This document shows, piece by piece, positions 48,070-48,196 of a stretch of 64,000 nt of DNA. The stretch is from an uncultured Clostridia bacterium (GTDB lineage Bacteria > Bacillota > Clostridia > TANB77 > CAG-508). A model generated the notes under the pieces. The model ran no database searches and was not told the origin of the DNA. It saw only the letters and a program-made list of their open reading frames with translations. Location of the stretch: contig CANRKJ010000008.1 of the NCBI GenBank assembly GCA_947631185.1, forward strand, positions 514 through 64,513, written 5' to 3'. Numbering within the stretch: position 1 is the stretch's first letter; every line of letters starts with the position of its first letter. Both the position numbers and the translations under genes were made by a program.

Positions 48070-48196
48070 TGAAAAATAATTACAATTTTGGCGTTGCGCG
48101 GTGGCGAACTGTATTTAAAATTTATTCAACGTACAAAAAGTACGCCTCATAAATTTTAAACTGGTTTTCCTAGCCAAAATTTAATTCTTTTCCAAA
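48070..48196 (+). repeat. MITE-like element, longest (127-bp) copy
   Basis: Same termini as 44769..44876. The internal part is shared with 24175..24242 (GCGTTGCGCGGTGGCGAACT). Confidence 0.8.

Follow-up and report, generated by a model that had tools for sequence, protein, structure and literature searches.

The window, that is, the whole 64,000-nucleotide stretch of DNA from an uncultured Clostridia bacterium that was analysed here, carries three copies of a short repeat, two on the plus strand (copies 1 and 2) and one on the minus strand (copy 3). In line with the original prediction, the copies share their termini. The 5' terminus TTGAAAAATAATTACAATTTTGRC is matched exactly three times, at 24219-24242 (-), 44769-44792 (+) and 48069-48092 (+), with none expected from 100 shuffles, and the 20-nt core of the 3' terminus, AAAATTTAATTCTTTTCCAA, also three times, at 24175-24194 (-), 44857-44876 (+) and 48176-48195 (+), with 0.47 expected. 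As had been proposed, the termini are imperfect inverted repeats of each other (24/23 nt) and every copy is predicted to fold as a single long hairpin, spanning 48069-48195 (127 nt), 44769-44876 (108 nt) and 24175-24242 (68 nt) in copies 1, 2 and 3, respectively; the span first given for copy 1, 48070-48196, was one base off. The expected G+C enrichment of the interiors was also confirmed (33-62%, versus 25% across the window), as was the lack of an encoded transposase, no transposase-size ORF lying within the window copies. No further window copy was detected by nhmmer with the family profile. The features of the locus are listed below, SD denoting a Shine-Dalgarno sequence.

48067-48197, plus strand: copy 1, a 127-nt hairpin (48069-48195) with complementary 2-base flanks GT...AC
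48196-48213, plus strand: atypical 3' tail of copy 1, made of ACGGATT, GGAGG (48203-48207) and a spacer; the gene ATG is at 48214
48060-48068, plus strand: host SD upstream of copy 1, GGAGG at 48060-48064, right after the FtsX stop codon (48057-48059)
44767-44878, plus strand: copy 2, a 108-nt hairpin (44769-44876) with complementary flanks GG...CC (nhmmer E 3e-26)
44877-44910, plus strand: 3' tail of copy 2, CCAGATCTAATCTTAGAAAGGAATGATATTAAAA, with SD AGAAAGGAA at 44891-44899; the gene starts at 44911
44755-44768, plus strand: host SD upstream of copy 2, AGGAGG (44755-44760) plus spacer, retained
24173-24244, minus strand: copy 3, a 68-nt hairpin (24175-24242) with flanks GG...TC
24140-24174, minus strand: canonical 3' tail of copy 3, TCAGATTTGTGCCTTAGGAAGGAATGAGATTAAAT, with SD; the 7TM histidine kinase probably starts at 24139-24137
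46870-46880, plus strand: empty site at the ABC-ATPase stop/FtsX start junction, GAGGAGGTATAATTTTG, filled in strains L124 and L130
43310-43335, plus strand: empty site at the response-regulator/histidine-kinase junction, TTGGAGGTACAAAATG, where L115 holds a deletion derivative of the element
50665-52059, minus strand: phage-type tyrosine integrase with an excisionase-like neighbour
52231-52425, minus strand: small HTH_17 protein beside the tyrosine integrase

A same-strand gene lies downstream of all three copies, and the gene context assigned to each of them, exporter operon included, proved correct. Copy 1 is located between the FtsX permease gene and that of a 375-aa protein, copy 2 lies past the terminator of a two-component kinase and heads a MacB-type exporter operon, and copy 3 is found between an NRPS-reductase gene and the 7TM histidine kinase gene. 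Copy 3 belongs to a minus-strand gene block (20311-31670; DUF975, RR-HD, 7TM kinase, NRPS with terminal reductase and one more large gene) whose GC skew is near 0, compared to +0.25 in the remaining window, indicating a lagging-strand-encoded island in a plus-leading replichore. The exporter operon itself (45170-46875) looks broken. Its membrane-fusion protein is split (45170-45826 and 45777-46184; intact at 335 aa in L125/L127/L128), as is the ABC ATPase (46194-46700 and 46666-46875; intact at 224 aa in L125/L128), and since the splits are common to relatives of 94-98% identity (L124, L130-133), they represent either conserved frameshifts or old pseudogenes. The small protein that follows copy 2 (44911-45159) is an N-terminal remnant of a Cthe_2159-family protein, which measures 352-356 aa in L124 and L130-133, the window lineage being without most of this gene. 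Further downstream, a pemK RNA (RF02913, 51.9 bits, 52514-52592, minus strand) adjoins the tyrosine integrase and the HTH_17 protein; this region probably marks the border of an integrated element, and the same arrangement occurs in ENA contigs carrying the window's genes.

Counting copies beyond the window, as the original prediction had proposed, revealed a large family. A scan with the 5' arm (20 nt, one genome per species) returned at least 120 loci, all of which, among the matches listed, were from uncultured Clostridia or 'Clostridium sp. CAG' MAGs except for two chance matches; a scan of metagenome contigs with the 3' arm likewise returned at least 120 loci, mostly from gut samples among the matches listed. 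Viral contigs, phage genomes and plasmids yielded no match to the element. Rfam 15 gave nothing relevant at the gathering score over the whole window, and chance-level matches only (E >= 2.4) when the element was searched at E <= 10. A full-text literature search for the terminal sequences retrieved no paper, and keyword searches retrieved no description of a MITE or repeat of this type at SD sequences or start codons.

Hairpins of the family range from 50 to 177 nt with a mode at 120-121 nt and minor classes at 49-50, 59-68, 106-108, 127-130 and 169-177 nt, and fall into two main interior types, A and B, of common architecture. Short classes result from deletions between internal direct repeats (GTCAAA or AAAATTTAAT), and long ones from the nesting, at various positions, of a second, unrelated palindromic mini-element of 48-50 nt. 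Copy 1 (nhmmer E 8e-31; sense RNA fold -31.7 kcal/mol, z -4.2) has a type A interior plus an extra module, GCGCGGTGGCGAAC, copy 2 has a type B interior with a small deletion, and copy 3 is a deletion derivative of the copy-1 type that arose by loss between the AAAATTTAAT repeats. The extra module (48092-48106), which is G+C-rich and shared by copies 1 and 3 and about ten other family members, folds into a small hairpin that precedes a T-rich stretch, with a weak terminator-like score; beyond this weak mini-hairpin, no convincing match to a promoter or intrinsic terminator was found within the element. The nested mini-element, GCATACTGAGGCTGTAAC...TTAACAGCCTCAGCA, was seen inside main-element copies of L012, L044, L050, L055, L066 (~3335-3385) and L089, and L030 (empty) and L066 (filled), which are 98% identical, differ cleanly in its presence; several mobile repeats of the hairpin type seem to reside in these genomes. 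Diverged subfamilies with co-varying arms are also present. Head-to-tail tandem arrays of the element occur in L004/L019, L037, L068, L086, L120 and L111/L235, where the first triplet of the second copies is often altered (ATGG, GTG, ATGAG); in L111/L235, the 5' arm is swapped for another sequence within a 117-nt periodic array. In L084 and L100, a SpoIIIAD-like gene is joined in frame to the initial 24 nt of the element (MKNNYNFDKDVVT-IDIVKI...), an internal-deletion derivative whose TTG may have become the start codon of the gene.

The complete unit can be written NN-(TTGAAAAATAATTACAATTTTGGC ... nested hairpin interior ... GCCAAAATTTAATTCTTTTCCAA)-N'N'-AGATTTGTGCCTTAAGAAAGGAATGWGATTAAAA. 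The two flanking bases on each side are variable yet mutually complementary (GG/CC, GT/AC, GA/TC, AG/CT and others), forming Watson-Crick pairs in 97/104 copies at +/-1 (62.5 expected) and in 84/104 at +/-2 (53.6 expected), with pairing at chance level at offsets 3-8; the independent 3'-arm sample gave 73/78 and 60/78, respectively. The search for target-site duplications called for by the original prediction came out negative. None of 104 copies had identical bases at +/-1, and left-right flank similarity was no different within a copy (6.25) than between copies (6.10; p = 0.82). On its 3' side, the hairpin is followed in 65/103 copies (~60%) by a conserved 35-nt tail, CCAGATTTGTGCCTTAAGAAAGGAATGWGATTAAAA, which ends at the downstream ATG and harbors a strong SD-like stretch, AGAAAGGA, whose duplex with the anti-SD averages -9.0 kcal/mol. 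Window copies 2 and 3 carry canonical-type tails, their homology extending some 35 nt beyond the 3' end assigned to them earlier, and copy 1 keeps just the first 7 nt of the conserved tail, then GGAGG. Most copies hold the ribosome-binding site in their own tail and leave that of the host upstream, contrary to the earlier view of an element inserted between an upstream stop codon and the ribosome-binding site of the next gene. The tail motif follows a canonical hairpin in 32 of its 40 occurrences and a diverged copy in two more; the remaining occurrences are mostly chance matches, and a hairpin-free tail is almost never found. Upstream of the NN-TTGAAAA terminus, a consensus AAGG is only moderately conserved and, because it is missing from the empty alleles of site 2 described below, was probably brought by the element rather than provided by the target.

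Filled and empty sites were compared between the window and strains L124 and L130-L133, whose FtsX proteins are 94-98% identical to that of the window. Both exporter-operon sites (sites 1 and 2, occupied by copies 1 and 2) are empty in these five relatives. At site 2, AGGAGGTTTTGAAW runs straight into ATGAATAAAGAAAC in five relatives, the empty alleles reading AAGAAGTTTRGGAGGTTTTGAAW joined to ATGAATAAAGAAAC and the window AAGAAGTTTAGGAGGTTTTAAGG, hairpin plus 34-nt tail, ATGAAAAAAGAAAC; the host SD spacer ends precisely where the element begins, the ATG comes right after the element, and the TTG of the element occupies the former ATG position. At site 1, the empty alleles read TAA-GGAGGAATTGTG-ATG and the window TAA-GGAGGAAGT, hairpin, ACGGATTGGAGGTAAAAG-ATG, with only TAA-GGAGGAA(N5-6)-ATG present in L124, L130-133 and L125. 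The ABC ATPase-FtsX junction reads GAGGAGGTATAAKTTTG in the window, L125, L127 and L131-133, and holds a copy of a diverged subfamily, whose arms co-vary (TTGAACAATAATTAGCATCTTGC / GCAATATACCAATTCTTGTTCAA), in L124 (9865-9988) and L130 (9859-9982), in which the upstream protein ends at the TAA of the element, with ...YEGEIEQ as its last residues instead of ...YEGEEV. L127 additionally carries a deletion derivative of the L124/L130 subfamily at 3586-3631. Three insertion polymorphisms within ~10 kb between strains with 94-98% identical FtsX show that the element family has recently been active.

At these sites, the element replaces the bases between SD and start codon, or a short intra-operon stop-to-start spacer. 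In all three recent insertions, 2-15 of the host bases beside the hairpin do not match the empty alleles, and insertion looks, from these alignments, as if the SD-to-start spacer had been exchanged, and less like clean cut-and-paste; given such unclean boundaries, part of the apparent replacement could be later adaptation. More distant filled/empty pairs (def, fmt, rnhA, tmcAL and others) display the same pattern. For site 3 (24242), no close empty allele was obtained, the nearest kinase homologues being just 75% identical.

The consistent placement and orientation noted earlier for three copies proved extremely non-random in the family as a whole. Among 92 non-redundant copies located away from locus ends, 79 were followed, no more than 90 nt past their 3' end, by the start of a same-strand ORF (80 aa or longer), compared to 2 with an antisense gene start beside their 5' end (p = 3e-21); the independent metagenome sample selected by the 3' arm gave 51 sense versus 8 antisense copies. 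The element is fixed almost only in translation-initiation regions and in the sense orientation. This bias, together with the abundant compensatory changes reported below, contradicts the random orientation and lack of such changes that were to speak against a non-neutral role. Between co-directional genes, tail-bearing copies were 19 sense to 0 antisense and tail-less copies 37 to 2; as tail-less copies are biased as well, the preference for the sense orientation does not stem solely from a need for the tail SD. Hardly any copies lie between convergent genes, where MITEs usually find refuge. Orientation tracks the local gene rather than the replichore, although informative cases are few (window copy 3 and three other loci agree, none disagrees); in this small sample, a replication-strand cause was set aside. 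Genes downstream of the element (def, fmt, rnhA, spoIIIAD, kinases, transporters) are functionally unrelated. The placement bias fits targeting as well as selection after insertion, and does not separate the two; we infer that it arises at least partly from targeting. A bolder version of this idea, which we consider doubtful, is that active targeting directs the element to translation-initiation regions, specifically in the sense of transcription, and that it acts as a 'portable translation-initiation region', rewiring gene 5' ends as it spreads. Recognition would then involve the SD/start region, perhaps through the anti-SD-like CCTT/TTCC of the element or by way of an intermediate, either RNA or single-stranded, linked to the strand that is transcribed. 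To our knowledge, such a choice of target site has not been described for prokaryotic mobile DNA.

Each window copy does precede a gene of the same direction, as originally proposed, but two of the three start codons assigned then lie inside the element. The in-frame ATGs at 24151 and 44899 are part of the tail (GGAATG), and the real starts, as judged from empty-site relatives and homologue lengths, are 12 nt downstream, at 24139 and 44911; homologues of the 7TM kinase measure 608-610 aa versus 615 aa from the first ATG. At the other end of the element, a host SD-like sequence occurs within 20 nt 5' of the TTG in 53% of the copies and 69% of tail-bearing ones, compared to 13% for a control window, at a distance of 4-9 nt (now 4 nt in the case of copy 1). 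Upstream ORFs that enter the element terminate at the TGA of tTGA (9 ORFs) or at the TAA of GAAAAATAA (10 ORFs), and none of these 19 reads through in the TTG frame (chance ~5e-4). In predicted mRNA ensembles, the pairing probability is 0.92 for the TTG versus 0.47 for the tail SD, and the gene ATG and tail SD are about half open. The ORF that opens at the TTG varies in length (9-61 aa and more) and stop position, with a minority reaching the tail. Since neither property is conserved, the interior of the element is not a gene, and the possibility of a small-protein gene was ruled out on these grounds. Selection for a start codon at the first triplet is not supported either, the variants found in the 3'-arm sample being CTG, TTA and TTT.

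These observations bear on the way in which the element would be tolerated at such sensitive positions. We favor, as the probable explanation of the family, a non-autonomous, recently active palindromic mobile element of a clade of AT-rich gut Clostridia that is tolerated at translation-initiation regions as a self-contained restart cassette. Its first 11 bases hold stop codons in two frames (TGA, TAA), such that an upstream ORF entering the element ends at once, and the third frame opens with a TTG predicted to be locked in the stem. The hairpin would be neutral to the mRNA, and the 3' tail would supply a new, strong and partly accessible SD correctly spaced from the host ATG. This tail SD is presumably the one used for translation. 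The element would thus be tolerated because it brings along its own SD, stop codons and buried start codon. Alternatively, the host SD might drive translation from the TTG of a leader peptide (MKNNYNFG...), the ribosome melting the hairpin, terminating near the tail SD and re-initiating at the gene ATG, much as in a bicistronic design of natural origin. The spacing of 4-9 nt between host SD and TTG in 53-69% of the copies would suit such translational coupling, as would the position of the TTG exactly where the ATG used to be at site 2, the ability of the canonical type-A ORF to reach a TGA 7 nt before the ATG, and the fact that rare second tandem copies begin with GTG or ATG rather than TTG. 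The variable length and stop of the putative leader ORF, the pairing of its TTG, first-triplet variants that are not better start codons, and interior changes that preserve the stem rather than codons all argue against it, however, and we find this coupling quite improbable.

Constraint on the stem was examined in 88 distinct type-B copies over 41 pairs. Standard pairs made up 97.9% of the stem cells, and double-sided changes were found in 17 pairs and 148 cells, compared to 8.2 pairs and 27 cells in shuffles (0/500 reaching the observed values) and at most 8 pairs and 21 cells with slid partners. Three irregularities of the basal stem are invariant, namely mismatches at positions 4 (A.C) and 9 (T.C) and a bulged C at position 15. 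Exceptions of the G-U and A-C kinds are rare and about equally frequent (8 vs 11; 14 vs 9), and the antisense RNA is predicted to fold more stably than the sense RNA; thus, covariation does not designate a functional RNA strand, and is just as compatible with a DNA hairpin or with templated correction from arm to arm. Copies at orthologous sites across species are 87-98% conserved versus 70-90% for flanking coding DNA, indicating constraint, homogenisation or repeated insertion, and at one orthologous site two species carry different interior types. This conservation fits host-level function or inter-copy homogenisation better than neutral selfish DNA.

Two readings of the element as a functional RNA were weighed against these data. 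The first is a host cis-regulatory or RNA-processing module, in which the hairpin would be cut (e.g. by RNase III) or would stabilise or insulate the mRNA, the tail becoming a new 5' leader with SD, and which would be retained for uncoupling neighbouring cistrons. Such a role is compatible with a mobile origin through exaptation. It would account for an element always transcribed in the sense orientation, in operons or 5' UTRs, for a 25-bp stem kept through compensatory changes, for orthologous-site copies that outdo their flanking genes in conservation, and for a tail whose anti-SD-like CCTT is able to pair with either SD; there is also precedent in Correia and ERIC elements, which are targets of RNase III / RNase E (PMC3049150). 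The similar frequencies of G-U and A-C exceptions and the better folding of the antisense strand, in contrast, do not single out the sense RNA as the object of selection, the main hairpin leaves SD and ATG unsequestered, and variation in presence between near-identical strains gives no sign of need. On balance, we regard a processing module as possible, though rather unlikely. The second reading is a non-mobile, conserved structured regulatory RNA of the downstream genes (riboswitch, thermometer or protein-binding leader). Conserved structure with covariation and a 5'-UTR or intercistronic position are what one would expect of it. Yet, in addition to the failure to find an Rfam match even at E <= 10 and the lack of functional relationship between downstream genes, copies in front of different genes approach 100% identity, the sites are empty in 94-98% identical strains, and tandem arrays, internal-deletion derivatives and nested insertions are repeat-like features, making a regulatory RNA of this sort very unlikely. 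The RNA function initially considered for the element was not supported, given the similar G-U and A-C exceptions, a covariation that names no RNA strand and downstream genes of unrelated function.

The designation of the element as 'MITE-like' holds insofar as it is repeated, non-coding, hairpin-forming and mobile. As in MITEs, all copies have terminal inverted repeats (24/23 nt, imperfect), and the family is small in size (50-177 nt), non-coding, multicopy (more than 240 loci over the two scans) and polymorphic for presence/absence. A classical MITE in the strict sense was nonetheless ruled out by the absence of target-site duplication, the flanks being complementary instead. The parent IS sought for it was not found either: no 5' arm was paired with a distant 3' arm among the 120 loci listed, and no transposase-like protein cluster was enriched near the copies in the fetched fragments (<=21 kb per genome). 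REPIN/RAYT systems are similar in many respects, with a hairpin of ~100 nt in which two conserved inverted arms enclose a less conserved middle, high copy number, a non-coding and extragenic nature, no target-site duplication, compensatory changes in the stem, and tandem and decayed forms. The GTAG/CGTC tag that defines REP sequences is absent from the element arms, however, which are not themselves G+C-rich palindromes; unlike REPINs, the element is strictly sense, sits at start codons, has a one-sided 35-nt tail with SD, and resides in Clostridia rather than Proteobacteria. No RAYT gene was found in the fetched fragments (<=21 kb per genome).

ERIC/IRU and Correia elements resemble the family as imperfect palindromes of 100-150 nt that are co-transcribed with flanking genes and display size classes due to internal deletion; in these known systems, the repeats can affect mRNA processing and expression. 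Among the differences, Correia elements duplicate TA and occur in both orientations, and we know of no report of ERIC or Correia elements between an SD and a start codon, or carrying the SD of a downstream gene. Rickettsia palindromic elements (RPE) are comparable as palindromic selfish repeats adapted to the expression context that they invade, and hence tolerated. RPE are inserted in frame within coding sequences and translated, whereas the element lies just outside the coding sequence and supplies stop codons and an SD. With IS200/IS605-derived elements, the family shares the lack of target-site duplication, strand-specific insertion and imperfect hairpins with unpaired bases; the AAGG 5' of its left end recalls their fixed tetra- or pentanucleotide, but is only moderately conserved and is missing from the empty alleles of site 2. 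IS200/IS605 ends form separate subterminal hairpins, whereas both ends of the element pair in one stem. By analogy, the family would work most like REPINs and transcribed MITEs such as ERIC and Correia. An SD-bearing tail, placement between SD and start codon and strict sense orientation are not among the functions of prokaryotic MITEs reviewed in 2024, ribosome-binding sites and start codons being unmentioned in that review.

Integron attC sites were considered as well, the element then marking gene-cassette boundaries as a recombination site. Imperfect hairpins of variable length (50-177 nt in the family), conserved extrahelical bases, fixed orientation between genes and the absence of target-site duplication are indeed attC-like. 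The polarity of the core site is reversed, though, with AAC/GTT innermost in attC (RYYYAAC...GTTRRRY) and GTT/AAC outermost in the element (GTTGAAA...TTCCAAC). Copies are scattered singly before housekeeping genes rather than arrayed as cassettes, the indel in filled/empty pairs is the element alone and not a gene plus its site, and no integron integrase was found nearby, the sole tyrosine recombinase of the window (50665-52059) looking phage-type. An attC identity is accordingly extremely improbable. As to how the mobile cassette that we favor might move, the invariant asymmetries of its stem and the absence of target-site duplication point to a single-strand hairpin transposase or recombinase of the HUH/Y1 (RAYT, IS200/IS605-like) or site-specific type rather than a DDE transposase. 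Such an enzyme may act on the element in trans and recognise its hairpin in the folded state, a part of the model in which we place less confidence than in the restart cassette itself.

One practical consequence concerns gene annotation. Automatic gene calling will tend to over-extend genes downstream of tail-bearing copies by 4 codons, and the start codon was mis-set into the element for two of the three genes near the window copies, which matters for gene calling and expression prediction alike. Sense orientation, absence of duplication, invariant unpaired bases and two complementary flanking bases together pose a concrete mechanistic puzzle. The association of a hairpin with an insulated SD resembles engineered translation insulators, and the element might be useful as a part of that kind. 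If our reading is correct, the family would represent a selfish repeat that colonises the highly sensitive bases that separate ribosome-binding site and start codon, by way of its own stop codons and ribosome-binding site, and would be the non-coding counterpart of the in-frame palindromic elements of Rickettsia. A sizeable share of the genes of these uncultured gut Clostridia would then be translated from an element-borne SD.
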